The notes under the pieces: model-generated
Databases searched by the model: none
What the model was told of the DNA's origin: nothing
The model's input: only the letters and a program-made list of their open reading frames with translations
Made by a program: the position numbers and the translations under genes
Assembly: GCA_003165795.1 (NCBI GenBank)
Contig: PMWW01000146.1
Location: forward strand, 11,489-75,488
Origin: Acidobacteriaceae bacterium
Lineage (GTDB): Bacteria; Acidobacteriota; Terriglobia; Terriglobales; Acidobacteriaceae
Direction: 5' to 3'
DNA: 64,000 nucleotides
Shown here: in pieces, positions 1 to 17,300 of the stretch
How the letters are laid out: the number at the start of each line of letters is the position of its first letter
How positions within the stretch are numbered: position 1 is the first letter of the stretch

Positions 1-552
1 AGTCTTGGCTTCGGTCATGGTGACAACCGCTCGCGCCAATGCGCCCTCGGTGACCGGACAGTCAAGCAGCAGTTGTACATTGATGGTGCCAGTGCAGAGC
101 GCGGTTTCGGTCACGGACTCCGGCGTTTCGCGCCAAGTGGTGGGATCGCCTGCGCAGGCAGCGTTGCCCTGCACCCCGGCAGTCACGACCGCAGTCACCC
201 ATATGTCATCCTCACCGCGCTGGACGGCCATGGCATAGTTCATGTTGGCCGCGGTCCCCATGGTCGCGACGCACTCCGGATCGAGATCGAGCTCCCGGCA
301 AACCGCGCGATGGTACTCTTCCAGCCCCAGCTTCATCATGCAAGCGTGGCGCTCGTGATGGGCCGATCCTTCGCAACTTTGGTGGTTCACTAAGTAACGT
401 ATGCTGTCCGACTGACCGCCATTGCAAGCGGAAGTGCTGAGGACGCGATGAGGCGTCAGCAGCGCCATCACCAGGAACCGGCCCGAACGGCGGAGGGAGA
501 AGGCCGGACCTTCGAGTAGAGTTTCCCAGTGCATAGGAACCATAGAGATCAT
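1..552 (-). CDS. CbiZ-like adenosylcobinamide amidohydrolase (N-terminal part; gene runs off the window start)
   Basis: Not in the ORF track because it is edge-truncated. My own minus-strand translation gives ...RVLSTSACNGGQSDSIRYLVNHQSCEG...TMGTAANMNYAMAVQ...VTAVVTAGVQGNAACAGDP...GTINVQLLLDCPVTEGALARAVVTMTEAKT. This fits the CbiZ-family motifs I remember (S..nGG, TAGv.NA..aGD, GTIN, TEAK). ATG start candidates lie at 534-552. Same strand as, and downstream of, the acs genes. Confidence 0.5.
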   Translation of the reverse strand, partial: MISMVPMHWETLLEGPAFSLRRSGRFLVMALLTPHRVLSTSACNGGQSDSIRYLVNHQSCEGSAHHERHACMMKLGLEEYHRAVCRELDLDPECVATMGTAANMNYAMAVQRGEDDIWVTAVVTAGVQGNAACAGDPTTWRETPESVTETALCTGTINVQLLLDCPVTEGALARAVVTMTEAKT

Positions 553-712: not shown

Positions 713-1618
713 TTACGCGTTCGCGTTAACCGGGAGGGCCCGCGCCACCTTAGCCATAGCCGTAATGTGGGCCGGAGTGCTCCCGCAGCAGCCACCGATA
801 ATGTTGGCGCCGGCTTGCACCAACTCGGCCACAAAGGAAGCCATGAGTTCGGGCGTCTCCTTGAATACCGTCTTGCCGTCTTCCATGACCGGCGGACCGG
901 CGTTGGCATGGATAAGAATCGGTACGTTGGGCGCGGCAGCCCGCATTTGCCGCGTGATTTCGATCATGTTGGAAATGCCATTACCGCAGTTGGCGCCTAC
1001 GATATCGGCTCCCGCCGCTGCCGCTACCTTGGCCGCGCGATCAGGCTTGACTCCCATCATGGTACGGAAACCCTTGATGCCCGGCTCGAAGGCGAAGGTG
1101 CAGATCACCGGCAGTTTGGTATTTTCCTTGGTGGCTTTGATGGCCTGCTCGGCTTCCACCACAGAGGACATAGTCTCTATGCAAATGGCGTCAGCCCCAC
1201 CTTCGGCCAGAGCAACTACCTGGGCCTTGAACGCTTCATACAACTGCTCGGCGGTGGTATCGCCGCCCTCCTCGATCACGATGTGCCCGGTTGGACCCAC
1301 CGACGCGGCTACATAGCCCTTGTCGCCCATGGCATGTTTCGCCAGCTTAGCGGCGGCAACGTTGATTTCATGGACCTTGTCGGACAGTCCATAACCCTTC
1401 AGTTTGAACGAAGTGGCGCCGAACGAATTAGTTTCCACTACGTCGGAACCGGCGGTTACGTACGCCTCGGCGATTTCTTCTACCTCTTTGGGATGGCTGA
1501 CGCACCACGATTCGGGGCATTCCCCTCCTTCCATCCCTTTGGCAAACAGGAAGGTACCCATAGCTCCATCGGAGATAAGGATCTCGCCTGCCTTGATACG
1601 TTCCAAAAGACTCTTCAC
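713..1618 (-). CDS. Stand-alone homocysteine S-methyltransferase domain protein (MetH N-terminal/BHMT-type, Zn-thiol methyltransferase)
   Basis: 301 aa. ISDGAMGT...ETNSFGA...DAICIETM...GANCGNG...IGGCCGSTPAHI match the S-methyl_trans TIM barrel with its Zn-binding Cys (C...CC). The start overlaps the RACo stop by 4 nt (1615-1618). Confidence 0.8.
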   Translation of the reverse strand: MKSLLERIKAGEILISDGAMGTFLFAKGMEGGECPESWCVSHPKEVEEIAEAYVTAGSDVVETNSFGATSFKLKGYGLSDKVHEINVAAAKLAKHAMGDKGYVAASVGPTGHIVIEEGGDTTAEQLYEAFKAQVVALAEGGADAICIETMSSVVEAEQAIKATKENTKLPVICTFAFEPGIKGFRTMMGVKPDRAAKVAAAAGADIVGANCGNGISNMIEITRQMRAAAPNVPILIHANAGPPVMEDGKTVFKETPELMASFVAELVQAGANIIGGCCGSTPAHITAMAKVARALPVNANA

Positions 1619-3483
1619 GATGCTTTCCTCCTTCGACTTTCAAATGTTTCTGCTACCGTTGGAAACTGCTCCAAGTCCGTGTGGGGAAGGAATAGAGCCT
1701 TCACATAGCTGTCCATGTATTGCGGATTGGAGCTCATATCGACATAGGTTATGCGGGCGGCAATCTCCGCCAGACGACGGCGATGCTCCCGCGACAGCAG
1801 CGCAATATACGCGCCAGTAAGAGAAGAATTCCCGATGTAACGGAACCGGTCCAGCGGCAAGTCGGGCAGCATGCCGATGAAAACCGCGTCCGCGATCCGC
1901 ATGTATCGCCCAAAGCCGCCCGCGATGTAGACGCGAGCGACAGCGTCCCAAGTGAGGCCGACGTTTTCGAGAACCAGTGAGCAGGCGGCATAGATCGCCG
2001 CTTTGGTGCGGATCAGGTTCTCCAAGTCAGCCTCGGTGATTACCAGGTCCTTGCCGGTCCGGGTTTGCTCGGCAGTGGCCAACCGGAACGCGCGGCGACT
2101 GTCTTGTTGCACGATCCGGCCCGTGCCGGGTGACTCGAAGAAGCGGCCGGAGCGGTCCACAACTTCCTGCCGAAACAGTTCGCCCACCAGCGAGATGAGA
2201 CCGGATCCGCAGATGCCTGCCGGCTTGCCGCCACCGATCACGGAGAACTCTAAGCGGGCCCCGTTGTCGCCAATAGCCACCCGCTCGATGGCGCCTTCGG
2301 CCGCCCGCATTCCGCACTTAATTCCCGCTCCCTCGAACGCCGGACCCGCCGAGCAGGCGCAAGCCACCATCCAATCCGCATTGCCGATTACGATCTCGCC
2401 ATTGGTACCAATATCCATGAAGAGAAAGACATCGTGGGCGTTGGTAGACAAGTCGGTGCATAACAGGCCGGAAGTAATGTCGCCTCCGACGTAGCTGCCC
2501 ACGCCGGGGGCACAAACCACGATGGCCTGCGGATCGATATTTAGGCCGACGTCCTGGGCGCGCAGTTCGGGAACGGAGTTCACCGTCGGGACGTAAGGCG
2601 CCTCCCGGATGTAGCGCGGAGGCAAACCGAGCAGCAGGTGAGTCATGGTCGTGTTGCCGGCAACAAAGGCCGCGCGAATGTTCTGCGGCTCAATCGAAAT
2701 TTCGCCGGCCAGCTGCCGGACCAGACCATTGATGGTTTCCAGCACCAGGCCGCGGAGTTCCTCCAGGCGTTCCGGATTGCGGGCGTAGTCGATGCGACTG
2801 ATTACGTCCGACCCCCGCCGGATCTGCAGATTGTAGGAAGTCTGCGTGGCCAGCAACGATCCGTCATCCAAGTCAATCAGTTGCACCGCCACGGTGGTGG
2901 TGCCGATATCGACGGCCAAACCGAGCGGATGCTCGGGGCTGTCCCCCGCTTGCACATGGCGGACGCGCAACCCCGATGCGGATTCCTCGACGCCAACCGT
3001 GATGTCGCCATTGGCGGCCCGAACCGCTTCCGCCAACTCGCGCAGCACCGTGAGCTCGCTAGTGATGGGAGCAGGCCCGCCATTACGGCTCAATTCGCGG
3101 GTGAGGCGTGTCCAATCGCTATAGTGCTCCTCGATGGAAGCCGGCGGCACGGCCAGCCGCTGGTTTCGGTACAGCGGCGTGAGGCGGTCCCGGTCCGGCA
3201 GCAGCTTGGGGTCGATCAGGGAATGGCTGTCGCCCAGCACCCGTAATCCCTGTTGGCTGCGATCGGGCAGCCGTACCACAATGTCTGACACGACTTTGGT
3301 CTGGCAAGCCAGAACGGAGGTCGGGCGTCCCTCCACTTCTACGGAACACAACCCGCAGGAACCTTCGCCTCCACACGGCAACTCCAAGTCGAGGATGCCG
3401 GCACGCAACGCTGCCTCGTGGATCAGCGTTCCGGCCGGCACCTCGGCCACGACGTTGGCGGGCTGGAAGCGAACCGATGGCAT
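1615..3483 (-). CDS. RACo/AcsV-type ATP-dependent reductive activator of corrinoid proteins (2Fe-2S ferredoxin domain plus ASKHA ATPase domain)
   Basis: 622 aa. N-terminal plant-type ferredoxin motif LPCGGEGSCGLCSV...LACQ. ASKHA phosphate motifs AVDIGTTTVAV and FMDIGTNGEIVIG. Lies 4 nt downstream of acsC. Confidence 0.85.
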   Translation of the reverse strand: MPSVRFQPANVVAEVPAGTLIHEAALRAGILDLELPCGGEGSCGLCSVEVEGRPTSVLACQTKVVSDIVVRLPDRSQQGLRVLGDSHSLIDPKLLPDRDRLTPLYRNQRLAVPPASIEEHYSDWTRLTRELSRNGGPAPITSELTVLRELAEAVRAANGDITVGVEESASGLRVRHVQAGDSPEHPLGLAVDIGTTTVAVQLIDLDDGSLLATQTSYNLQIRRGSDVISRIDYARNPERLEELRGLVLETINGLVRQLAGEISIEPQNIRAAFVAGNTTMTHLLLGLPPRYIREAPYVPTVNSVPELRAQDVGLNIDPQAIVVCAPGVGSYVGGDITSGLLCTDLSTNAHDVFLFMDIGTNGEIVIGNADWMVACACSAGPAFEGAGIKCGMRAAEGAIERVAIGDNGARLEFSVIGGGKPAGICGSGLISLVGELFRQEVVDRSGRFFESPGTGRIVQQDSRRAFRLATAEQTRTGKDLVITEADLENLIRTKAAIYAACSLVLENVGLTWDAVARVYIAGGFGRYMRIADAVFIGMLPDLPLDRFRYIGNSSLTGAYIALLSREHRRRLAEIAARITYVDMSSNPQYMDSYVKALFLPHTDLEQFPTVAETFESRRRKAS

Positions 3484-3487
3484 GGCT

Positions 3488-4828
3488 TTACCGTGCGTCT
3501 TGGATCTTCATGTACGAGCCGAGATCCGAGGCCTCACCCGGACCAACCAGCACCTCCCAGCCGGGCAAGCCTTCCTCGATTTCGCCGCTGATTTGCGAGA
3601 CATAGCCGGGAATGATGATGCGGTGTTTTCCCTGGTCGGCAAGGTCAGTGGCCTTCACCGCATTAGCCACCTTTTCGCCCGAGAACTTGCCCGCGGCCCA
3701 TCCCGTTAGCACGCTCATGCCTTCGGTATCCACGACGAGTAAGTTCGCCGGGATGCCCGAGTTTTCAATTTCGCCGGAGACCAGGAAGTAGGTCAGGGAG
3801 AAATTGGTGGTGACCAGCACCGGAGAGTCCTTGCCGGTCTCGCCGATGGGATAGACCTTGGGATCGACCTGAATCGGCTTCTGCGGGTCGGTGTAGATGT
3901 TCTGCCGCAGCATCATCAAAGGCAGCAGGACTTCGAGCTTGATGCGGTCGAGCACTACGATGGACCCGTATTTGCACAGGAAAGTCGAGGCATCGGCAAC
4001 CACCGACGCGTCGTCCAGCGCGGTCACGAAGTTAATGATGGGATAGCCCAGCGGCTCGAAGGAATTCTTCAGCGCCGCCTTGCGGATGAGGGTGTTGTAC
4101 TGCAAGGTGGCTGCGGGATTGTCGGCCGGCAGGTCGAGCACGATGTCCTTCAGCCCCAGAGCGGCCAACTTGGTGGTCAGGGCCACCAACTCGTCGATGG
4201 TGGCCGCGCGGGCCACAATCGGCGCATCATACTTCAACGCCAAGGCCGCGACGGCATCGGCGTTAGCCGGGGTGGCGGCGTGAATCAAGGGCCGCTGGCC
4301 TGGCAACTCTTTCAGCCCGGCTTCCAGCGCGTCCAGGTTCGAGCTCCGCAGGATAATGCCCATGCCGGTAGAACCCGCTGCGGTCTTCACCAGATCGACG
4401 AAGGGTTTGACCTCTTCGCTGAAGTTGTCGACCAGCACCAGGTTGACGCGCAGTTGCTCGCCTACCCGTTCCAGGCAATAGTCCCGCACCTCGGCGATGC
4501 CGTGGCCACAATTGGAGAGCGGCTCATTGTCGGCAAAAGCGATGGCGATGGCGGTGGGGTGAACAAAGGTTTTGTCGTGGCGGAACATGACCGTCTCGTT
4601 GCCGATCAGGACTTCGCGTTCCGGCGGTCCGATCTTCACCAGGCGGATGGGCGGCTTGCTGGCCGCCCCGACAGTTTTGATGGCTTCTTCCGAAGCGTAA
4701 GGACAAGCCGCAAGTTCGGCGTTCTTGGCGGCCAGCTTCATGGCGAAAGCCATGCAGGTGGGTACACCACACTCGCCGCAGTTGGTCTTGGGCAGCAGCT
4801 TAAAGATTTGTAAACCAGTCATTGCCAT
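3488..4828 (-). CDS. acsC: Corrinoid iron-sulfur protein large subunit (AcsC/CdhE)
   Basis: 446 aa. N-terminal 4Fe-4S motif KTNCGECGVPTCMAFAMKLA...ACPY followed by TIM-barrel and corrinoid-binding parts. Lies 12 nt downstream of the acsB-acsD ORF. Confidence 0.9.
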   Translation of the reverse strand: MAMTGLQIFKLLPKTNCGECGVPTCMAFAMKLAAKNAELAACPYASEEAIKTVGAASKPPIRLVKIGPPEREVLIGNETVMFRHDKTFVHPTAIAIAFADNEPLSNCGHGIAEVRDYCLERVGEQLRVNLVLVDNFSEEVKPFVDLVKTAAGSTGMGIILRSSNLDALEAGLKELPGQRPLIHAATPANADAVAALALKYDAPIVARAATIDELVALTTKLAALGLKDIVLDLPADNPAATLQYNTLIRKAALKNSFEPLGYPIINFVTALDDASVVADASTFLCKYGSIVVLDRIKLEVLLPLMMLRQNIYTDPQKPIQVDPKVYPIGETGKDSPVLVTTNFSLTYFLVSGEIENSGIPANLLVVDTEGMSVLTGWAAGKFSGEKVANAVKATDLADQGKHRIIIPGYVSQISGEIEEGLPGWEVLVGPGEASDLGSYMKIQDAR

Positions 4829-4840
4829 TTTGTGGTCACC

Positions 4841-7800
4841 TCACTTACCAGAGCACATCATTTCGTCAATCTTGCGCTTGAGGGTGCGAGCAGCCAGCGG
4901 GTGGTAAACCACCAGCAGGTCCGCTCCCGCATTCAGGTAACACGCCGCCGTGGCGATCTCCAGCAGGGCTTCGCGCTCGTCTTCGCTTCCCCACAGGGGG
5001 AAGTCCTTACGTGCGGCCCGGCTCTCCTTCACCTTCGACACTTCAAAGCCGGAGTTCACCATCATGGGCATGGCCAGCATCGGATCGCCGGTAAAGGCCG
5101 AGGAGCGAATGCGTTCCATCACCGAGTAGGTGTATTCCAAGCCGTAGCCCACGGAGCTGGTCAGGGGATCGACGAGAATGTGGTCGGGTTGTACGCCCAT
5201 GGTGGTAAGCAGGATGTTGAGCTGCTTGCACATGTTGACGTCGATGGGAGTCTGCGCCACTACGCAGTGGCCGTAAGCCATGACGGTGGCGGCGATGGTC
5301 TTGTAGTTGTCGGTTTCCACCCAGTTCAACAGCAGGTTTTCTCCGGCAAAGGTGGAAGCGATGTGCTTCATCACGGAGTTGTTCTTTTCGAAGTGGCTGC
5401 AACCGGTAACGATTATCGGTACCCCCACCGCGCCCAGAATGTCCTTCACGATGTCGCCGGCCGCTTCCGCAGACATGTCGCCATTGTCAGGATGGCAGGT
5501 CGCCAGGCGGACACTGATGATTTCCGCACCCAGCTTCTCCACCAGATGGCGGGCCATGGCCTTCGGGTCCTTGAGCAGGTCTCCATAAGCGTTGCGCAGG
5601 AGATCAGGATACGACTTCGGCGGGCTGTCCAACACCTCCATGGCAATCACGGGTTTGTGACCCACGTTGCCCTCATAGTGGCGGAAGGGCAATACCTCAG
5701 CCCCGCCCAGGACGACCGACGAAGTGCGGGTCCCGCTGCCGCCCAGAGTGATGGTGCGGACGGCGACATTGGCTTTGTCCGGAACCACGGTCACTGACTT
5801 CGGCAACACGATGGCCGCCGAAGTGATGGGCCGTTCCACGCCTTCTGGTGGCGGCGCGGGCTTGGACGGGCGCGGCTTAACTTCGGCCGCTTTGGTTGGG
5901 GCGGCACTGGAGGCGGTGATCTGGGCTTCCAATTCCGCTTCGGTCGGCAGGCAGCTCGGACAGCTGTCCGTGGCAGGCACGGCGGCGGCCGAGGCCGAAG
6001 CTAACATGCCGGTTTGCATCAGCAGCATGTTGGCGCCGGCGTGCAGCAAGTGCATGGCAGTCGAGGCTTGCAGGACCGCCATCTGCTGCATCGGCGTCAT
6101 TCCCGGTTGAATCTCGGTGGCGGGAGGAGCGCTGCGCAGCTGTTCCAGTAGGCTGATAAGGGCCCCCATACCGTCATTACTTGGCGGAATGGGCGGTGCC
6201 GCTTGCCCGGCGGACGGCGCCGCAGCCGGGGACTTGGCCACGGGAGGCTTGGTACCCGTTGTACTGGCGGCGATGGTCGTCGTCGGCGTCGCAGCCGGAG
6301 GTTCGGCCACCGCTACGGCGGTATCGGCGACGGTGGTGGTCGAGGCCCCTCCACCCGAGGCTGCAGCTTGTACCACGGCGCCGCGGGCAGCGTCGACGGC
6401 GGCAGCTTCCTCTGACGGAGTGGTAATGTCCCACATTGTCAGAGCAGGGTGGCTAACCTTCTCCATGAAGGCCTGCACCGAGGTGATATCGGTACCGTTG
6501 GTCTCGTCGGCGATCAGGTCGGTGAAGTTTTCGACGCCAAAGGTCTTGCCGACTTTGTCGAGATCTTCCCGCAGAAAGTCCTTGAGGTCTTTGGGCATCC
6601 AGACAATGCGCTTGTGGCCGCCCTCGGCGGAGATGAACTTACGGCTGGTGATGTAGGCCTTGCCTACGCCGACGAATCCCGGTACCTGCTGACCGCCGCC
6701 GGCCGTGTTCGCTAGGGTGGAAAACTTCATCCCAGCGGGCGTTTCGCCCAGGTATTCGCGATTCACGATCATGACCCCGTTGACTTCCGGCATCAAGGCC
6801 ACGATGGCCTCGAAGCAGCCGCAACTGGTCATGGGATCTTCCAGCAGCGAGTAAGCGTTGAAGCGGGCCAGCGTCTGCTTGGAATTGGCGTAAACGTAAT
6901 CGTTGATGTTGGCCCACTGCCCGCGCACGGGATCGATGCACTCGCCTTTGATCAGCGGCTGATTGGGGCCGGTAGGATCGATCTCGTAGGCCGCCTTGCC
7001 GTCCAGCCAGTTGTAGGCGCCGCACAATCCCAGCCGTTCCGGGGTGATGACGCAAACATGGTTGGGAGCGAAGCTCTGACAGAGCAGGCAGGAGTAGAAG
7101 GTATCGACGCTCTCGTCGGTAAGCGACTCCATGCGTTGATTGCGGGCGCGATAGGAGTGGCGGGCGACGTCGATCCGCTCGGTTACATCTTTGGCGTCGG
7201 TGAACAGTGTCACCTGCACCTTGTCCACGATGGCGGGATAGTCGTTCAGGAACTTGGCATGCAGGATCTCGCCCAGGTGACGGATCTTGAAGCCCTTGTC
7301 CTTAGCGCCCTTGCTGATACGGATCCAGTTGATGTCGCGCTGACCCATGTGCCAGATACCTTCGGCGCCATTGATCAAGTGATGGATCTGGCGTTCGAGA
7401 ATCGGCTCGAAGTCAGGCTGCATTTTGCGCCCGGCAACTTCCACCCAAATGCCGATGGGCAGTGCGGGCAGCTCTTTGCTGTCGGGGTCGACTACAACAT
7501 CGTCGATTTCGGGGCCGACCACGGTGATCTTGCCGTCTTCCACCTCGGTGATATCCAGCGTGGTGACGTACTCGAAGCCCGGCGTCTTGTTGCCGCCGAA
7601 CTCGACGTAGGTTTGCTCCTTGCGGATGCGCTCGCCTTCGAAGGCGGCGCCAAACGCCACCGGGATGGGCACCTTGGCGACTTTGATCTTGCAGCCGCGG
7701 ACTTCCAGGCACTTCTCCACGATGTGGTCGATGGGCACGTTGGAGACAACATGCTCGTAGGTACAAATGCCGGTGGGCAGGATCTGCGGAATGTCAGTAT

Positions 7801-8617
7801 CGGCAATGGTGGGAAAGCCGTAACTGATCGCGCCCGCGGCGGCGGCGTATTTCTCTTCGGTCACTTCGCCTAGCGCCATAACGAAGGCGAAAGTGCGGTT
7901 CTTATTGTATTTAAGATTGCGTGCGTAATCGCCCGGCTTGACTCCGCCGAAGCTGAGGGCCACGCGGTTGGCAAATCCCAAGGCATAGACCGCTGCCGAG
8001 ATCTCCTTACCGAAGGGCACCAGCCGGGTATCCCAACCTAGTTCAACCTCCGCCTCCGCCAACTGCTCGGAGAAAGATGTGCCGTGACTATGCCCGGCCA
8101 TGAAGACGTAAAGGTTCTTCTCTTGCAACTCGCGGGCGATGCGGACGGCGTGCTCGACCGACGGTGCGGCGCCCACGATGGCAGCGAAGCCGGGGGCGGA
8201 GCCGTCGACAAACTCGACACCGCGTTCGCGAATGATCACGTCATTGGCTGCTCCCAGCCAGATGCCGTTGACCGGATTGGGGCCGATGAGATATTTGCAA
8301 GCCTCGATAATTTCGAAGGCGAACAGAGTGGCGATACCCGAATCGAGGGTGCCACCCAGGTAAGGTAACCAGTTATTGTCGCTGGGTACGGCCGGCAGCA
8401 GCCGGTTGCACTCATCGAGAATTTTCTGCATGTCCGAGAGCCGGTCCACTCGTTCGCCCAACAGCGAGTAAATGACCGGCAGGGAGTAAGCGGTGTCTGG
8501 AAAGCCCACTTCACAATCGCTGCCTTTGGCCGCGATGGCTTTTGCCAGGTAGTCTTCCGCGTCGCGCACAATCTGGTGGGCGCCGCGGATTGCCGACGAT
8601 GCGATGATTTTGCTCAT
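4841..8617 (-). CDS. acsB: Fused acetyl-CoA synthase (AcsB) and CFeSP small subunit (AcsD) joined by a low-complexity linker
   Basis: 1258 aa uninterrupted ORF. Residues 1-735 (nt about 6412-8617) are ACS, with the A-cluster motifs SCLLCQSFAPNHVCVITPERLGLCGA and MTSCGCFEAIV. Residues about 740-930 (nt about 5820-6400) are an Ala/Pro/Thr/Met/Gln-rich linker. The last about 320 aa (nt 4841 to about 5820) look like AcsD/CdhD (...VIAMEVLD...IISVRLATCHPD...VPIIVTGCSH...VDPLTSSVGYGLEY...). Confidence 0.85.
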   Translation of the reverse strand: MSKIIASSAIRGAHQIVRDAEDYLAKAIAAKGSDCEVGFPDTAYSLPVIYSLLGERVDRLSDMQKILDECNRLLPAVPSDNNWLPYLGGTLDSGIATLFAFEIIEACKYLIGPNPVNGIWLGAANDVIIRERGVEFVDGSAPGFAAIVGAAPSVEHAVRIARELQEKNLYVFMAGHSHGTSFSEQLAEAEVELGWDTRLVPFGKEISAAVYALGFANRVALSFGGVKPGDYARNLKYNKNRTFAFVMALGEVTEEKYAAAAGAISYGFPTIADTDIPQILPTGICTYEHVVSNVPIDHIVEKCLEVRGCKIKVAKVPIPVAFGAAFEGERIRKEQTYVEFGGNKTPGFEYVTTLDITEVEDGKITVVGPEIDDVVVDPDSKELPALPIGIWVEVAGRKMQPDFEPILERQIHHLINGAEGIWHMGQRDINWIRISKGAKDKGFKIRHLGEILHAKFLNDYPAIVDKVQVTLFTDAKDVTERIDVARHSYRARNQRMESLTDESVDTFYSCLLCQSFAPNHVCVITPERLGLCGAYNWLDGKAAYEIDPTGPNQPLIKGECIDPVRGQWANINDYVYANSKQTLARFNAYSLLEDPMTSCGCFEAIVALMPEVNGVMIVNREYLGETPAGMKFSTLANTAGGGQQVPGFVGVGKAYITSRKFISAEGGHKRIVWMPKDLKDFLREDLDKVGKTFGVENFTDLIADETNGTDITSVQAFMEKVSHPALTMWDITTPSEEAAAVDAARGAVVQAAASGGGASTTTVADTAVAVAEPPAATPTTTIAASTTGTKPPVAKSPAAAPSAGQAAPPIPPSNDGMGALISLLEQLRSAPPATEIQPGMTPMQQMAVLQASTAMHLLHAGANMLLMQTGMLASASAAAVPATDSCPSCLPTEAELEAQITASSAAPTKAAEVKPRPSKPAPPPEGVERPITSAAIVLPKSVTVVPDKANVAVRTITLGGSGTRTSSVVLGGAEVLPFRHYEGNVGHKPVIAMEVLDSPPKSYPDLLRNAYGDLLKDPKAMARHLVEKLGAEIISVRLATCHPDNGDMSAEAAGDIVKDILGAVGVPIIVTGCSHFEKNNSVMKHIASTFAGENLLLNWVETDNYKTIAATVMAYGHCVVAQTPIDVNMCKQLNILLTTMGVQPDHILVDPLTSSVGYGLEYTYSVMERIRSSAFTGDPMLAMPMMVNSGFEVSKVKESRAARKDFPLWGSEDEREALLEIATAACYLNAGADLLVVYHPLAARTLKRKIDEMMCSGK

Positions 8618-10563
8618 TGCAGTTCGCGCCTCGATTTCATGTCGTACATCTTGCGTTCCTTTTGAGTATTGATGTGGAGTGCATCGCGCTTGCGCTCGAT
8701 GTGGGCTAGCATCTTGTCGGCTGCGACTACCGGATCAGGCTCCCACTCGAAGCGTCCGCCGGTAATGCTTTCCATCTCACTGCACAGCAGGTCGTGGACG
8801 TTCTTGCTGCCCTCGACGTAGAGAGGATGGCCGAGCACGACATACATTCCGCTAGCTACGAAGTAATGGCCGATAGCGACGGCCTTCTCGCTCATCCATT
8901 CCGGCGCGGCGCCGGCCACGGGCAGGTCGGCGATGTCATCGCCCAGACCGCCTTCGGCTACCAGGTTAGTGGCTGCCATCAGGATGCGGCTGTTGTCGAC
9001 GCACGAGCCCATGTGCAAGACGGGAGGAATGCCGACCGCCTCGCAGACTTCGCGCAAGCTGTCGCCGGCCTGGGCCAGCGCGGCTTCCGGTGTCAGCAGC
9101 CCCGCCTTGGCACAGGCGATGGCGGCGCACCCGGTTTGCAGCACCAGCACGTTACGCTTGATCAATTCCTGGGCCAGCCTGACGTGGCCCTGATCGGCCA
9201 CTACCTTGGGATTGCTGCATCCGATGATGCCGGCCACGCCGCGAATGCGGCCATCGATGATGGCATCGTTCAGCGGACGGAAAGTACTGCGGAAGCGGCC
9301 GCCCAGCATGTGAAAGATGGTTTCGTTGGAGAAGCCGGCCACCAGTTCCATTGACTCGTTGGGAATGTGGACGCGTTGCGGATCGCGATTTTCGAAGTTG
9401 TCGATGGCCTTGCGAATCAGCTCGCTGGCTTGCTCGTAACCGGTGTTCGAGTGGAACGTGATCTGCTCGGCTTCGGCGGTGTGGGCGATCTCCGAGGTGC
9501 TGACCAGTTGGGTGTGGAAGCACTTGGAGACTTGCGCCAGCGATGGCATCACGCACTGCACATCGATCACCATGACTTCTACTGCACCGGTAAGAATGGC
9601 CAGCTCCTGTTGCAGGAAGTTGCCCACGATGGGCAGCCCATGGCGCATCAGAACTTCGTTGGCGGTACAGCAGATGCCGGCAACATTGATTCCCTCGGCG
9701 CCCTTGGACTTCGCGTAATCGATCAACTCCTGGTCCCCGGCGGCCACGGCCAGCATCTCTGACAATGTGGGTTCGTGTCCGTGGACGATGATGTTGACTT
9801 TGTTTCCAGCCAGCACGCCCAGGTTCACCCGGCTGCGCACCGGCTTGGGAGTGCCGAAGAGAATGTCTGACACTGTGGTAGCGATGGCCGAGCCTACCCA
9901 GCCGTCAGCCAGGCTGCACTTTAATCCACCCATGATCAGATGGCGATAGTCGTGGTCAACGCCCATGTTGGTGCGATGCATCAGCTCCACCACCGCGGAG
10001 TCGATGCCATTGGGATTGATGTTTAGCTTGTTCCACACCGCCTGGCGTTTTTCCGGGGCCAGCTTCAGGGTGGCGTTGGGCTCTTCCGACCAGGCGAATT
10101 GGGTCAGAAAGAAGTCCGCCAGATCGCTGGCGATGGTCAGGTCGTCTTTGCCTTCGGTAGCAATCTCGAAGAAACGCGCCGCCTCGTGCAAGCGCAGTGG
10201 CTCGACGATTTTGTAGTCGCCGCCTTTGCCCTGCGACACCGCCTTGAGGGTGCGCACCAGCATGCGGCCATGGTCGGAGTGAGCGGCAGTACCGGCGGCA
10301 ATCTCACGCAGCAGGTTGCGCGCAGTAATAGTATCGGCGTCGGCGCCGCAAATGCCGAGGTGGGCTTTGGGGGTGATGCGGCAAGGGCCCATGTGACACA
10401 GCCGGCAGCAAACGCCGTCTGTGCCGAACTTACACTGGGGTTTTTGCAGCTCATAGCGGTCGAAGACCGTACTTATCTCGGCTGCACCCGCAATGCTTAC
10501 CATATCGATTGTTGCTGGGTCCGTCGAAACCGGTAACCCTGCTTTTCGACCGGTGGTCGCCAT
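8614..10563 (-). CDS. acsA: Ni-Fe carbon monoxide dehydrogenase catalytic subunit (CooS/AcsA)
   Basis: The track ORF 8614-10761 carries a 66-aa Arg-rich extension. The likely start is the internal ATG at 10561-10563 (MATTGRKAG...), which overlaps the cooC stop as ATGA. CODH motifs CKFGTDGVCCRLCHMGPCRI, plus IVHGHE and CTANE regions. The stop overlaps the acsB start (8614-8617). Confidence 0.9.
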   Translation of the reverse strand: MATTGRKAGLPVSTDPATIDMVSIAGAAEISTVFDRYELQKPQCKFGTDGVCCRLCHMGPCRITPKAHLGICGADADTITARNLLREIAAGTAAHSDHGRMLVRTLKAVSQGKGGDYKIVEPLRLHEAARFFEIATEGKDDLTIASDLADFFLTQFAWSEEPNATLKLAPEKRQAVWNKLNINPNGIDSAVVELMHRTNMGVDHDYRHLIMGGLKCSLADGWVGSAIATTVSDILFGTPKPVRSRVNLGVLAGNKVNIIVHGHEPTLSEMLAVAAGDQELIDYAKSKGAEGINVAGICCTANEVLMRHGLPIVGNFLQQELAILTGAVEVMVIDVQCVMPSLAQVSKCFHTQLVSTSEIAHTAEAEQITFHSNTGYEQASELIRKAIDNFENRDPQRVHIPNESMELVAGFSNETIFHMLGGRFRSTFRPLNDAIIDGRIRGVAGIIGCSNPKVVADQGHVRLAQELIKRNVLVLQTGCAAIACAKAGLLTPEAALAQAGDSLREVCEAVGIPPVLHMGSCVDNSRILMAATNLVAEGGLGDDIADLPVAGAAPEWMSEKAVAIGHYFVASGMYVVLGHPLYVEGSKNVHDLLCSEMESITGGRFEWEPDPVVAADKMLAHIERKRDALHINTQKERKMYDMKSRRELQ

Positions 10564-11330
10564 CAGTTTTTCTCCTGTTGATTGGTAAATAACTTGGCTA
10601 ATAAATCGTTCATGGCTATGCGCGCCGGGGAGCCCGGCGCAATCGTGGAAACCGGCACGCCGTCGGCATCGAGGGCGGCAACGTCCTGGTCCAGTGGAAT
10701 GCTGGCCAGCAAAGTAAGTCCTGTAGCTTTGACGGCCTCGGCAATAGCCTCGGGCAGGCATCCTCCGGGCACGCGATTGACGATCAGGCCGCGTTGTTTG
10801 GTAGGCAGGGCGACTTCATCGGCCAGCGCCGAGATACGTCCCGCGGTCCTAATTCCCCGCACCGTACAGTCGGAAACAATCAGCAGATAATCTACGGAGA
10901 GCAAGGTGCGGCGGGAGATATGCTCCAAGCCAGCTTCGCTGTCGATGACGATGTTGCGGTAGTTGCTGGCCAGGCGGTCCAGCACCTCACGCAATACATT
11001 ATTGGCAAAGCAGTAACAACCCTGGCCTTCGGGCCGGCCCATCACGATCAGGTCATAGCCCTTCTGTTCTACCAGAGCTTCCTGCACGCGCAGGTCGAGA
11101 AACTCTTGCTTGGAGACGCCTTTCAGCGCGGTTGCTTCCTTGCGGGCGCTTTCGCGAATGCCGCCCACGGTTGCGCAATAGGCAATGCCCATCGCCTCGT
11201 TCAGGTTGGCATTGGAGTCGGCATCGACCGCCAGCACCGGCGACTCGCCGTGCGTCGCCAGCCAGCTCAGGGTGAGAGCCGCCAGCGTTGTCTTCCCTAC
11301 CCCACCTTTTCCTGTCATTGCCAAAATCAT
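10563..11330 (-). CDS. cooC: CooC-type Ni-insertion ATPase (CODH maturation)
   Basis: 255 aa. Deviant Walker A GKGGVGKTT, CxC metal motif GQGCYCF, MinD/ParA fold. Confidence 0.85.
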   Translation of the reverse strand: MILAMTGKGGVGKTTLAALTLSWLATHGESPVLAVDADSNANLNEAMGIAYCATVGGIRESARKEATALKGVSKQEFLDLRVQEALVEQKGYDLIVMGRPEGQGCYCFANNVLREVLDRLASNYRNIVIDSEAGLEHISRRTLLSVDYLLIVSDCTVRGIRTAGRISALADEVALPTKQRGLIVNRVPGGCLPEAIAEAVKATGLTLLASIPLDQDVAALDADGVPVSTIAPGSPARIAMNDLLAKLFTNQQEKN

Positions 11331-11419: not shown

Positions 11420-12499
11420 TTAAGCGCCCGTACCGATCAAGGCTGGGGCGCCAATTTCCTGCCGCAGCTTGGTGCTCATTTGGTGCAGCGTTTGGAAAAC
11501 CAATTCAGCGTCGGCGACCGGCAGCGATCCCGTGCCACAAGACGGCGTGATGAACGATTGCCGGCAAATGAGCTGCGTATCCAACCCCGTTATCTTGGCC
11601 AGCTTCTCGATCAGTGCGCAAAACTTGGCGACCAGCGAATCGACCGTCTGGGCATGGATTTTGGCGCTGTTCGTGGGCACGATTCCGACCGCCAGCGCCT
11701 TTCCAGCTTTAAGGTGCGCCTTGAAGTTGTCGGGATAGAGCAGAATGGTTTCGCCATAATCAAAGGCATCAAAGTTAATGATGTCCACACCCGCATCCAT
11801 CAGGATCGGCCACTCGGTATTGCCGCAGCAATGCACTCCCGACAGGGCTCCCTCGGCATGGATCGCCTCAATTACTTCACCCAGTTTGGCCACGGTGTCG
11901 TCGCGGGTCACGCTGACATAAGTGGAGGAGCCGAAGGCGGACAGGATGGGCTCGTCTACAAAGCAAATGACTTTCTCGGCGTAGGGCTGGAACTTGCGAA
12001 TCTGCCAGCGACATTTCATGGTCAATCCCTTGACCACCACGTCGACGAATTCCGGATTGTAGTAAATCGCCCGTTTTTTCTCGTCCACAATGCTGAGGCC
12101 GACGCTGAGCGGGCCCGTGGTCTGTACCTTCACGAAGGGACGCTTGATGCCGGAAGCTTTGAGGGCCGCCTCCATGGCATAAATGCCTTTCGAGAAGTCA
12201 GGGGTGATGCGAAAAGCCTCGAGGTCGTCGGCGCAGAACTTTTCGTAAAACTCCGCCAGGTCCTGGCTGGTGTCGCCGGTGGTGTCGAAGTACATGCGGC
12301 CCTTCACCGGGTCGAGGACCACCCGCGGAATGCCTTCGCTGTACTGGATTTCCATCTGTTCATGAAGCCCGAAGGCCGGCAGCTGCGGCCAGATCGGCGC
12401 GTTGGGGATGTTCTCTAGAACGACTTTGACGGCCTGCTCTGGATCTTTGTGAGGCAAGCTGCCGATTGCGGTAGCGGTACAGCAGGGCTCGAAACTCAT
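11420..12499 (-). CDS. Core-MetE-like (Meth_synt_2, single barrel) Zn-dependent methyltransferase; candidate folate-independent methionine synthase (Mes-like)
   Basis: 359 aa. MetE C-terminal-barrel motifs TAIGSLPHKD, FVDEPIL, GVHCCGN (His-x-Cys) and ITPSCGTG. No N-terminal folate-binding barrel. The start overlaps the stop of the upstream CooC-like gene (12496-12499). Confidence 0.7.
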   Translation of the reverse strand: MSFEPCCTATAIGSLPHKDPEQAVKVVLENIPNAPIWPQLPAFGLHEQMEIQYSEGIPRVVLDPVKGRMYFDTTGDTSQDLAEFYEKFCADDLEAFRITPDFSKGIYAMEAALKASGIKRPFVKVQTTGPLSVGLSIVDEKKRAIYYNPEFVDVVVKGLTMKCRWQIRKFQPYAEKVICFVDEPILSAFGSSTYVSVTRDDTVAKLGEVIEAIHAEGALSGVHCCGNTEWPILMDAGVDIINFDAFDYGETILLYPDNFKAHLKAGKALAVGIVPTNSAKIHAQTVDSLVAKFCALIEKLAKITGLDTQLICRQSFITPSCGTGSLPVADAELVFQTLHQMSTKLRQEIGAPALIGTGA

Positions 12500-14322: not shown

Positions 14323-17300
14323 CTAAAACGAGAAGCGCAGCGCCAGCTGTTGCACTCGCGGAGTGGTGAGAGTGGCGCCATAGACGCCGAACGAACCGCT
14401 GGTGGTCAGGTTCTGCAGCGAGTTCAGCGGATTCACGTCAAAGCGCACGGAGTTGGTAACGTTGTAAACATCCCAGGCAAATTGCATTCCCCAGCGTTCG
14501 CTTAGCTTCCAGTTCTTGGCCAGGCGAGCATCGATTCCGAAGTAGCCGTCGCCGCGGAAGTTGTTGCGCTCGCCGGCCTCGCCGGGATAGGGGTTTTGCA
14601 GGCTGGCCAATGCCTCAGCCGGATTGGAGAACACATTGGGAGCGCCGTTGGCGCCAATGTAGGTGCCGGTCTGGATGGCTCCGGTTTCAATCATGTTACT
14701 TTTTTCCAGCCAATTGGTCCCCCACCCCGCTCCGCTGATAACGCTGAACGGCAAACCGCTGGTCCAGCGGCCTACGCCCGACAGTTGCCAGCCGCCGATA
14801 ATTCGGTCCCATCCCGCACTGGAATGGCTGCCCAGCAGTTTGCCTTTGCCGAACGGCAAGTCGACAACCCAGCTGGCGGTAATCAGGTGGCGAATGTCAT
14901 AGTCAGAAGGACCATAGCTCAGCCCGGGATTCCAGGCATTCAGGATTGCGCTAAAACTGCTGCCCACCGTGCTGCCGGTGCTGGACGAGTACACGGTGCG
15001 CTCGTCGTCGGAGCCCATGTCCAACGATTTGGAGTAGGTGTAGCTGAGCTCCATTTGCATTCCGTGGCGCATGGCGTGGCGCAACACCAACTGTCCACCG
15101 TTGTAATTGCTATCGCCGATGGAGGCCCATGTGTACATGCTGGCAAACTGGGTGGGCCAGAAGCGTCCAGTCTGGCCGCCGCATCCGGGATAGCAAAGGA
15201 TATCGAGCGCGTAGAGCGCGCCGGTCTCGTTGCCCAGGTTATATTTCCAAATGCTGTTGTAGATGTTCTGGGTGGCGCTCATGCCGCCGGTCGCCGCGTC
15301 GGGGAACATGTCCTCGAAATAGGGGATGGGCGCGACGGTGGTCTGGCCGGCATAGCCGTCCTTGGAAAGTTGGGTCGCAGCCGAGAAATAATCCTGACCC
15401 GACTTGGGATCGACCAGATCGAGCGGCTGCGCCAGGTCGATCTGCTGCAGCTGATGACGGCCGAATCGCCCCAGATAAGCCGCCTCCAGAACGAATCCAT
15501 CCGGCAGTTGGCGCTGCCACGAAACATTCACCACGTGCGAATAAGGAGTTTGCATCTGGCTATCGATTCCGTGGGTGATGGCGAATCCGGTAGTCAGCGG
15601 GTCGGTGGGCGACAGCGCCGGATAGCTGACGACCTGTTCCGGAGTGCCAGTCAAGTCAGGAATATTGTGCGCGCCGGTGTAGCGGGGCGAGGTATCGGGC
15701 GTCAGCACATTGGTTGGATTGGTAATGCTGTCGCTCAGACCGTAGGAGCCGTACTGATCGAAGAGATTGACGATGCTTTCGCCGAAGTGGTCGTAATACT
15801 TGCCATAACCGGCGCGCAGCACGCTGTCGCCGGGATTGCCGAAAAGTTTGTGCCAGAACCCCTGTCCCACATTGGGGGAGTAGGCAAATGACAAGTGCGG
15901 GGCCAGATTGGCCTTCTGCATGGGCCAATACGGCTGCAGTCCGCGGGCCTGGCCGGACGGCGCGAAAGAAATGTAGGGCTGCACACTGTTGCCTAGCGCG
16001 GCTTGCGCCCCGCGGGTTTCAAACCACTGGTAGAGATCGGTGGTGGGTTGCACCTGCTGGCCATTGACTTCGTAGGGAGTCTGCAACAGGGTGTGCCGCA
16101 GTCCGTAGTTGACGGTCAGGTTGGGCGAGATGCGCCAGGAGTCCTGCGCATAGTACTCGAATTCGTTGTTCTTGAAATCGCGATCGATCATCGCGCCCGG
16201 TGGCAACAGGGTTCCCGTCTTCCCGTTGGCCGATACCTGATAGTTCGATTGCGAGGTCACATAGTCCAGCAGGCCGGCCAGGTTGGTCATCGAGAAGTTA
16301 TAGGAGCCGGCAAAACTGTTATCGACCGAGGGAAATCCAAACACGGTGGGATCGAAGCTTCCGCCCACGCCGACGATGCCGGCATCGACCAGCGCGTAGG
16401 AATTGGTGACCGCGGAATTGTAGGACAGCGCGTTGCTCTGGTTCTGATTGTGGATGAGGCGATAGTTAGCGCCGAACTGAATGGTGTGACGGGAATGCGT
16501 CCAAGTCAGGTCATCGACCAGATTTTGCACCGGCACATCGACGATGGTGGTCCGAGTCTGGGCATCAATGGTGCTCATGCCGTAGAAATTGGCGTACGAG
16601 CCTTGCCCGATGCCGTAGCTGGAATAGCCTTGGCGGATATAGCTGTAACGCAGGCTGTTCATCAGGGTGGGAGAGATCGCAGAGTTAAGCCCCACGGCCA
16701 GTCCCTTGCTGTCGCTCGAGTTGTTGGAGCTGGCCGGCTGCCCGGGAAACTGTGGTACTCCCAAGGAGCTGTCTCTTTGCAGATTGCCGCGGATGAACAA
16801 CCAGTTCCGGTTGGACAGCGCGTAGTCAACCCGGGTGATGTACGTATTCAGCGAGGCGGGGTCCGGTGCCGACCAGGTGTAGGAAGCGGTATTCAGACCA
16901 TCGCCGGCAGAATAGCCGTTAGGCAGCGGATATTGCTTAAAGGCCGCCAGCGAATAAGGGTCGGCTCCTGGTCCCCAAGGGCAAGTGCCAGTCCCAGTGC
17001 AGTTCGGGTCCATCGAGGCAATTTGCGCGGCGTTTAAGGTGACGATCTGAGTGGCCTCATTGCTGGTGCTGGGATATTTGATTTCCCCGGCGCGTAGTGA
17101 CGCGGTAGGCACAATCATCGTCATCTGCTGGTTTTCGTCGATCTTCTCGCCCTCGTAGGTGGTAAAGAAGAACAGCTTGTTTTTCTTGATGGGACCGCCG
17201 AGCGATGCGCCGTAGGCGTTGCGATCCAGCGTGCCGGGAACGTTGGGCAAGCCTTGCGCCAGCTCCGCCTGCTTGTTGAACCAATCGTTGGCGGGAGTGA

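Follow-up and report, generated by a model that had tools for sequence, protein, structure and literature searches.

Results

acsBD joins acetyl-CoA synthase and a corrinoid protein subunit in one reading frame

The stretch of DNA analysed here (called 'the window' below) comprises 64,000 nucleotides of contig PMWW01000146.1 (positions 11,489 to 75,488, forward strand) from the Acidobacteriaceae bacterium assembly GCA_003165795.1, and carries on its minus strand an operon for carbon monoxide dehydrogenase/acetyl-CoA synthase (CODH/ACS). The subject of this report is one gene of that operon, acsBD, in which ACS (AcsB) and the small subunit of the corrinoid iron-sulphur protein (AcsD; the protein is abbreviated CFeSP or CoFeSP) are encoded together (Table 1). 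An earlier note on this DNA, made from the sequence alone, had described the two as a single uninterrupted reading frame of 1258 amino acids (aa) without naming its strand. That description holds for the minus strand; translation of the plus strand of the same interval meets many stops, and within the linker region the coding frame alone is open, the other two frames containing 4 and 3 stops.

Table 1. Features of acsBD and of its operon in the window
Feature	Position	Strand	Residues	Remarks
acsBD	4841..8617	minus	1-1258	single uninterrupted open reading frame (ORF), 1258 aa plus stop codon; start overlaps the acsA stop (ATGA)
AcsB part	6425..8617	minus	1-731	A1 (1-317), A2 (318-488), A3 (489-731); from Pfam, NCBIfam and PDB alignment
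A-cluster ligand region	6815..7090	minus		C510, C513, C522, C532, C599-G600-C601
Conserved post-AcsB segment	6356..6421	minus	733-754	TPSpEAAAVDAAR; predicted helical
Arm L1	6176..6355	minus	755-814	rich in Ala, Pro, Thr and Ser; length and sequence vary; predicted disordered
Helix H1	6131..6175	minus	815-829	DGMGALISLLEQLRS; homologue of AcsD 1156-1173
Helix H2	6002..6100	minus	840-872	MTPMQQMAVLQASTAMHLLHAGANMLLMQTGML; homologue of AcsD 1210-1241
Arm L2	5837..6001	minus	873-927	Pro/Ala-rich; least conserved part; predicted disordered
AcsD (CFeSP small subunit) TIM barrel	4844..5836	minus	928-1258	sole AcsD of the genome
AcsD barrel helix	5099..5152	minus	1156-1173	VGYGLEYTYSVMERIRSS; source or paralogue of H1
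AcsD barrel helix and strand	4895..4990	minus	1210-1241	SEDEREALLEIATAACYLNAGADLLVVYHPL; source or paralogue of H2
acsA (Ni-CODH catalytic subunit)	8614..10761	minus		TIGR01702, 684 bits; directly upstream of acsBD
acsC (CFeSP large subunit)	3488..4828	minus		NF003195, 530 bits; 12 nt past the acsBD stop
acsV/RACo (corrinoid reductive activase)	1615..3483	minus		Pfam/NCBIfam
Stand-alone homocysteine S-methyltransferase domain	713..1618	minus		PF02574; last operon gene
359-aa gene, putative MesB-type methionine synthase	11420..12499	minus		between two cooC-like genes; without Pfam match

The note had also claimed a complete ACS with its A-cluster cysteines and a complete small-subunit barrel, and both claims are borne out. 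For the AcsB part, Pfam places CODH_A_N at residues 22-110, CdhC at 318-478 and ACS_CODH_B_C at 489-729, and the NCBIfam model NF040764 (AcsB) matches residues 10-731 with 1046.9 bits against a cut-off of 800. In PDB sequence alignments the solved ACS chains align to residues 11-729 and reach their own C-termini, the Carboxydothermus hydrogenoformans ACS (7zkj_B) scoring 713 bits. The A-cluster cysteine set is invariant across 107 fused proteins (see below); assigning roles from the Moorella enzyme, we take four of these cysteines to hold the [4Fe-4S] cluster and the Cys-Gly-Cys motif to hold the Ni-Ni site. Judged by these matches the AcsB part is a complete, normal three-domain bacterial acetyl-CoA synthase, for which catalysis is predicted. 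The AcsD half is likewise complete: NF003376 (delta subunit) matches residues 945-1254 with 363 bits (cut-off 280), and residues 3-320 of Moorella AcsD (4djd_D) align to 942-1256 with 277 bits; the acetogen-specific model NF040759 stays below its cut-off (261 versus 430).

Since the alignments with ACS and with 4djd_D reach the chain ends, the end of AcsB leads into the start of AcsD through ~195-210 additional residues. The genome, which is 99% complete, contains no CdhD-family matches other than AcsC and the fused AcsD domain, and CFeSP must therefore be assembled with the fused chain (AcsD domain plus AcsC). This is a departure from the separate-polypeptide state of all characterised systems. 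A full-text search of the literature found no description of an AcsB-AcsD fusion, and the database annotation of the fused proteins reads merely 'subunit alpha/beta'.

The fusion is conserved in more than 100 assemblies

With residues 700-1258 as query, 848 homologues were found. Nearly all of the best 120 are four-domain proteins (~1120-1283 aa), drawn from JGI, ENA, NCBI and Logan assemblies, and 106 of them are full length and can be aligned with the window protein over its whole extent with the frame kept. The same fusion, which the earlier note had proposed to seek in related genomes, is accordingly not unique to this one: more than 100 fused sequences occur in Acidobacteriota and Armatimonadota, and the named genomes (Acidobacteriaceae, Korobacteraceae, Terracidiphilus, Bryobacteraceae, Solibacteraceae, Armatimonadota) come mostly from peat, bog and soil. 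The GC content at third codon positions (GC3) is 0.68-0.78 through the linker compared with 0.77-0.79 in the domains. The earlier note had further considered that an internal start in the linker could give AcsD as a separate product, and this idea finds no support in the sequence: none of the 18 in-frame ATG, GTG or TTG codons between residues 760 and 960 is preceded by a Shine-Dalgarno (SD)-like motif. The acsC start is preceded by a GAGGTG ribosome-binding site.

Among same-genus copies of acsBD, five of the eight are intact; one is cut within the catalytic part of AcsB, one is broken many times and one (genome G008) is split in the linker. In the latter (L012, G008:C11, 3560-4060, corresponding approximately to window positions 5900-6000) one extra G in a CCCGG run of arm L2 yields a 907-aa ORF (AcsB, L1 and H1-H2) and a 357-aa ORF with a GTG start (AcsD), and the insertion has two possible explanations, a homopolymer error or a natural split of very recent date. 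Among the named genomes, the copies that are broken belong to long-read metagenome-assembled genomes, which also break within the AcsD barrel and the catalytic domains, so that indel error is the likelier cause. The split copy with its GTG start is what favours the notion that misassembly or a frameshift error has created the single ORF, or that AcsD is made from an internal linker start. We regard this as highly improbable, because more than 100 independent assemblies hold the frame over ~200 highly variable, indel-rich residues, GC3 shows no break, the remaining frames are closed by stops, internal start codons lack SD-like motifs, and broken copies come from long-read assemblies of the kind just described. 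Overall, the sequence comparisons indicate that the acsBD fusion is genuine and not an artefact.

The linker contains a conserved helical module between disordered arms

The linker (residues 732-926, 195 residues) contains 47 Ala, 26 Pro, 21 Thr and 17 Ser. When conservation is expressed as the mean frequency of the commonest residue in 107 sequences, the AcsB domains and AcsD (1-731 and 928-1258) reach 0.80-0.87, arm L1 (counted as 732-814) 0.39 and arm L2 (873-927) 0.25, and between the arms values rise to 0.60 for H1 (815-829) and 0.77 for H2 (840-872). The core of H2 contains 15 positions that are at least 90% invariant (Q845, L849, Q850, S852, T853, A854, L857, L858, A860, G861, N863, M864, L865, L866 and M867). 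The arms consist of ~45-50% Ala plus Pro, and their length across fused proteins ranges from 33 to 79 residues for L1 and from 8 to 79 residues for L2. This pattern indicates that H1-H2 is under strong purifying selection. As a separate observation on arm L2, a CPSC motif lies at window positions 5951-5962 (residues 886-889); CPSC, CPTC or CPRC occurs in close relatives and in ~21% of the family.

In an AlphaFold2 (AF2) run on residues 60-1258 with the family alignment, H1 and H2 were predicted as helices with predicted local distance difference test (pLDDT) values of ~60-80, the arms as disordered (pLDDT ~27-45), and an extra helix was placed at 736-754, directly past AcsB. Folded alone, the H1-H2 module gave a helix-loop-helix with pLDDT 74-86. 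The Met/Gln-rich, helical-looking stretch described in the earlier note lies at 815-829 and 840-872. The note had treated the whole linker as a low-complexity tether; this description suits the Ala/Pro-rich arms but not the helical part, which is a module under strong conservation whose source is the AcsD barrel (see below). Its proposal of an insulated methyl channel does not fit the arms: as these are predicted to be disordered, and are long and length-variable, they can increase the local concentration but are unable to close off a channel.

The hydrophobic moment of H2 is low (0.12-0.17) and conserved residues lie on every face of the helix, a pattern more in keeping with a helix that is fully buried than with an amphipathic helix at a surface. 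Searches of NCBIfam, Pfam and PDB sequences returned no match to the linker, and Foldseek with the model of the H1-H2 module returned nothing below E = 3.6.

H1-H2 is a shortened duplicate of part of the AcsD barrel

A profile of 28 H1-H2 modules aligned by hhalign to the window's own AcsD with E 6.3e-5 over 59 co-linear columns, H1 falling on residues 1156-1173 and H2 on 1210-1241 with a 27-residue gap between them. A second, independent profile, built from 23 unfused AcsD proteins, was matched with a probability of 91% (E 9.1e-7). Smith-Waterman shuffle tests gave, for H2, z = 5.5 in the window protein and 9.5 in P0071; for H1 the corresponding values were 2.3 and 5.4. The AF2 model shows both source segments as helices of the barrel, with a strand coming after the second one, and on this model we take them to be helices alpha7 and alpha8 of AcsD. 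Overall, these alignments indicate that H1-H2 repeats, in shortened form and within the same chain, the C-terminal part of the AcsD barrel.

The strong purifying selection on H1-H2, together with the conserved residues on all faces of H2, suggests that the module is most likely buried in a protein-protein contact, and two forms of such a contact were considered. First, H1-H2 might self-associate and so build (AcsA)2(AcsBD)2(AcsC)2 units into a higher-order assembly, by analogy with the N-terminal coiled coil of archaeal CdhD. The layout is the same as in the archaeal acetyl-CoA decarbonylase/synthase (ACDS), where disordered Ala/Pro sequence on the N-terminal side of the small-subunit barrel contains a helix; H2 is not amphipathic and has conserved residues all round, as a fully buried helix should; and helices taken out of a barrel would expose hydrophobic faces. 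However, H1-H2 and the N-termini of CdhD are not homologous in sequence (probability below 1% by hhalign), and a clade of fused proteins manages without the module, so that we hold self-association to be a tentative possibility at best. Homology of H1-H2 to the archaeal CdhD N-terminal oligomerisation region is a different matter and was rejected on the hhalign results, the probability being 0.04% against 8 archaeal-type CdhD N-termini and 0.2% against the published Methanosarcina acetivorans oligomerisation peptide. Second, H1-H2 could form a pseudo-AcsD surface that mimics alpha7/alpha8 and serves, in its own chain or between chains, as a latch or second dock by filling the site on AcsC, the A1 domain of ACS or RACo to which that face of AcsD usually binds. 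Such a role would suit the barrel-derived sequence of the module, in which both helices are kept in order, and the published models in which AcsD contacts ACS at the latter's N-terminal domain and caps the corrinoid; we consider it, like self-association, conceivable rather than probable.

ACS-AcsD fusions arose at least twice and one clade lost H1-H2

In a tree of the catalytic domains built without the linker, at least six fused proteins of 1123-1139 aa without H1-H2 form one clade (support 0.99) nested in the H2-bearing family. The absence of H1-H2 here is therefore a secondary loss, and the core enzyme can do without the module. Members of this subclade are L088, L092, L094 and L045, in which the terminal homocysteine methyltransferase gene is also missing. 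In L045 the AcsD part is interrupted by ~1 kb (6840-7897), the frame ending in ...YSVMERMSSRVMALNGLRMMPLSP*; the interruption may be an insertion and this copy a pseudogene.

In a tree of AcsD domains the window's clade is monophyletic (support 1.0). Two further types of fused protein, P0136 (P0136/L050) and P0151 (P0151/L096), also carry a helix between disordered arms, but one unrelated to the barrel (z = 0.4 and -0.6, respectively). The P0151 type lies elsewhere in the AcsD tree (0.996), with many unfused AcsD proteins between it and the window's clade, and a sister relation of the window's clade and the P0136 type is unsupported (0.12). A single origin of all AcsB-AcsD fusions is ruled out by the position of the P0151 type; separated as it is by unfused AcsD, the ACS-AcsD fusion arose at least two times. 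The closest unfused relative examined, from Aminicenantes (L048), has the order acsA-acsB-cooC-acsD-acsC-RACo. Other AcsD fusions among representative-library proteins (P0167, P0180 and P0164) are MTHFR-(TPR)-AcsD (1038 and 845 aa) and AcsD-CODH (1122 aa), and AcsD proteins of ~525 aa with a C-terminal extension exist in the same library.

Operon context and the probable direction of methyl flow

The operon runs in the order GntR/FCD, cooC, 359-aa gene, cooC, acsA, acsBD, acsC, RACo and homocysteine S-methyltransferase domain, and the same order is found in Armatimonadota and in an 8.2-Mb genome. Its gene junctions are overlaps or gaps of at most 12 nt. As listed (715 aa, first ATG), acsA overlaps the upstream cooC-like gene (10563-11330) by ~200 nt; because homologues have 649-658 aa, its real start is probably near 10566 (650 aa, with a 4-nt overlap with the cooC stop). 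After the operon, a gene with a CbiZ (adenosylcobinamide amidohydrolase) domain lies at window positions 1-552 on the minus strand (PF01955, E 1e-33).

No AcsE (methyl-folate:CFeSP methyltransferase) was found among the pterin-binding genes of the 99%-complete genome, which are FolP (DHPS, 289 bits versus a cut-off of 163) and MetH only (C84:6704-7483 and C44:31813-32481); of the two, FolP alone is a stand-alone pterin-binding gene. Given this absence, and an operon containing a putative MesB and a homocysteine methyltransferase, ACS is probably the methyl donor to CFeSP, and methyl groups probably flow from acetyl-CoA via CFeSP to methionine. The idea of the earlier note that the tether holds the methyl donor on its acceptor is therefore retained as regards the tether, while the direction of transfer may be the reverse.

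An orthologous PF02574 gene adjoins RACo at ~25 H2-bearing loci, is seldom missing from H2-bearing operons, and is absent from all testable fused loci without H2 (L045, L088, L092, L094, L050 and L095). This distribution would be expected if H1-H2 docked the operon's stand-alone homocysteine methyltransferase and so passed CH3-CFeSP to methionine synthesis. We nevertheless consider such docking unlikely. In the domain tree the loss of the methyltransferase came first and maps to the base of a clade with 17 members, and H1-H2 was deleted only later in one subclade; H2-bearing members without the methyltransferase (L023, P0013 and L021) keep H1-H2 equally well conserved; and the unfused Aminicenantes operon has the methyltransferase but not H1-H2. 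Because the loss of the methyltransferase is earlier and wider and the module has not relaxed, H1-H2 function cannot depend only on the homocysteine methyltransferase.

The 3' ends of several of these operons have features of their own. L092 has a 44-aa methyltransferase remnant (MKHLLKRIKAGEVFISNGGMEP...) directly after RACo. In the P0013 operon (L097, 15351-17875) RACo precedes a thymidine kinase gene, a fragment of a DEAD-box gene and a gene for a phage-type integrase, which suggests that the operon end was replaced by a mobile-element insertion. At L095, which has a P0136-type operon and is the one locus of the two further fusion types to extend beyond RACo, neither MesB nor a homocysteine methyltransferase was found, and the gene after RACo (15873-16499) encodes a DUF3786 protein; L096 ends at RACo. 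In L050 a 245-aa ORF with a weak zinc-ribbon match follows RACo (10500-11237).

Discussion

Taken together, we consider it likely that acsBD is a genuine fusion that gives one ~135 kDa chain, in which CFeSP is leashed to ACS and the linker carries a barrel-derived interaction module. That ACS and the small subunit of CFeSP are tethered covalently, as the earlier note had supposed, remains the simplest reading of a genuine fusion with two complete halves. In the mechanism that we propose, the ACS half would sit on the CODH encoded just upstream and the AcsD domain would pair with AcsC to form the corrinoid protein, so that ACS and CFeSP would be permanently 1:1 and at high local concentration. 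The disordered Ala/Pro arms (~60 and ~55 residues) would allow the corrinoid domain to move back and forth between A-cluster and further partners; by our estimate their ~115 residues could span up to roughly 400 Å when fully extended. Binding of CoFeSP to CODH-ACS is known to need very high CoFeSP concentrations, and cryo-EM work used crowding concentrations (PMC12289521). A leash would make methyl transfer independent of protein concentration, which would suit a low-flux anabolic system: ACS would cleave acetyl-CoA, the methyl group would pass as CH3-Co(CFeSP) to homocysteine and give methionine, and CODH would oxidise the CO. H1-H2 would be buried in a contact with itself or, as a pseudo-AcsD surface, with a docked partner.

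Several points weigh against this reading. The whole-chain AF2 model is mediocre (predicted template-modelling score 0.44, with A1 poorly modelled) and shows secondary structure and disorder, but no contacts. The split form in G008 is at least tolerated in an assembly. The nested clade described above deleted H1-H2 and kept all else, which indicates that the module is dispensable for core function. Finally, the fusion might merely ensure equimolar co-translation, the linker being cleaved after folding to give free AcsB and AcsD; the arms are long and, being predicted disordered, would be protease-accessible, and the G008 split form suggests that separate chains could work. We consider cleavage very unlikely, because translational coupling throughout the operon already makes a fusion unnecessary for stoichiometry, the strong conservation of H1-H2 argues for a role of the linker in the mature protein, and a conserved cleavage motif was not seen in L1 or L2.

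If CFeSP is indeed leashed to ACS, a natural ACS-CoFeSP fusion supplies a 1:1 complex from the outset, in which the structure and kinetics of an encounter that is weak, transient and hard to trap could be studied, and acsBD could guide the design of tethered enzymes for synthetic C1 pathways. Bacteria would have reached the archaeal ACDS principle, namely local concentration by disordered tethers and a helix, by a different route. The barrel-derived module is a clear case of part of an enzyme fold put to new use within a linker. The organisms concerned are abundant peat and soil Acidobacteriota and Armatimonadota; their operons carry methionine-synthase genes while AcsE is absent, so their genomes may be classed as acetogenic although they may only make methionine methyl groups. 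For peat, the SPRUCE study reports ACS peptides from depths of 20-70 cm (PMC12296737). A more far-reaching proposal, that these otherwise heterotrophic bacteria possess a distinct bacterial CODH/ACS machine with leashed CFeSP, a pseudo-AcsD module that docks a partner or self-associates and so organises an ACDS-like assembly, and mainly cleavage activity that supplies methyl groups from acetyl-CoA to folate-independent methionine synthases, seems to us doubtful in its entirety.

Comparison with known systems

The E2 components of 2-oxoacid dehydrogenase complexes have Ala/Pro-rich swinging arms that flank a small helical peripheral-subunit-binding domain. The linker of acsBD resembles them, by analogy only, in having a small helical module between two Ala/Pro-rich flexible arms; it differs in chemistry and cofactor carrier and has no sequence or fold match to them. 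The P0136/L050 and P0151/L096 fusions share the four-domain architecture and the core operon acsA-acsBD-acsC-acsV with the window's gene, whereas their linker helices are unrelated to the AcsD barrel.

Compared with the bacterial CODH/ACS systems with free CoFeSP (Moorella thermoacetica, Carboxydothermus hydrogenoformans and Clostridium autoethanogenum; PDB 1MJG, 1OAO, 7ZKJ, 4DJD, 2H9A and 9FZY), the window's system has the same three-domain ACS with A1, all A-cluster ligands, and adjacent acsA, acsC and RACo. It departs from them in that AcsB and AcsD are one polypeptide with a ~195-residue join, and in that the genome has no AcsE and the operon instead contains methionine-synthase-type genes. 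In archaeal ACDS the modules are kept together by disordered tethers and an oligomerising helix (bioRxiv 10.64898/2026.07.07.736967): CdhD has a disordered N-terminus with a helix and CdhC a disordered C-terminal tail. The likeness to acsBD lies in disordered Ala/Pro tethers that would concentrate ACS and CoFeSP. Unlike in the archaeal complex, the predicted tether of acsBD is covalent, its ACS keeps A1 and its helices derive from the AcsD barrel. The fusion is a variation on the known CODH/ACS system rather than a new kind of system.

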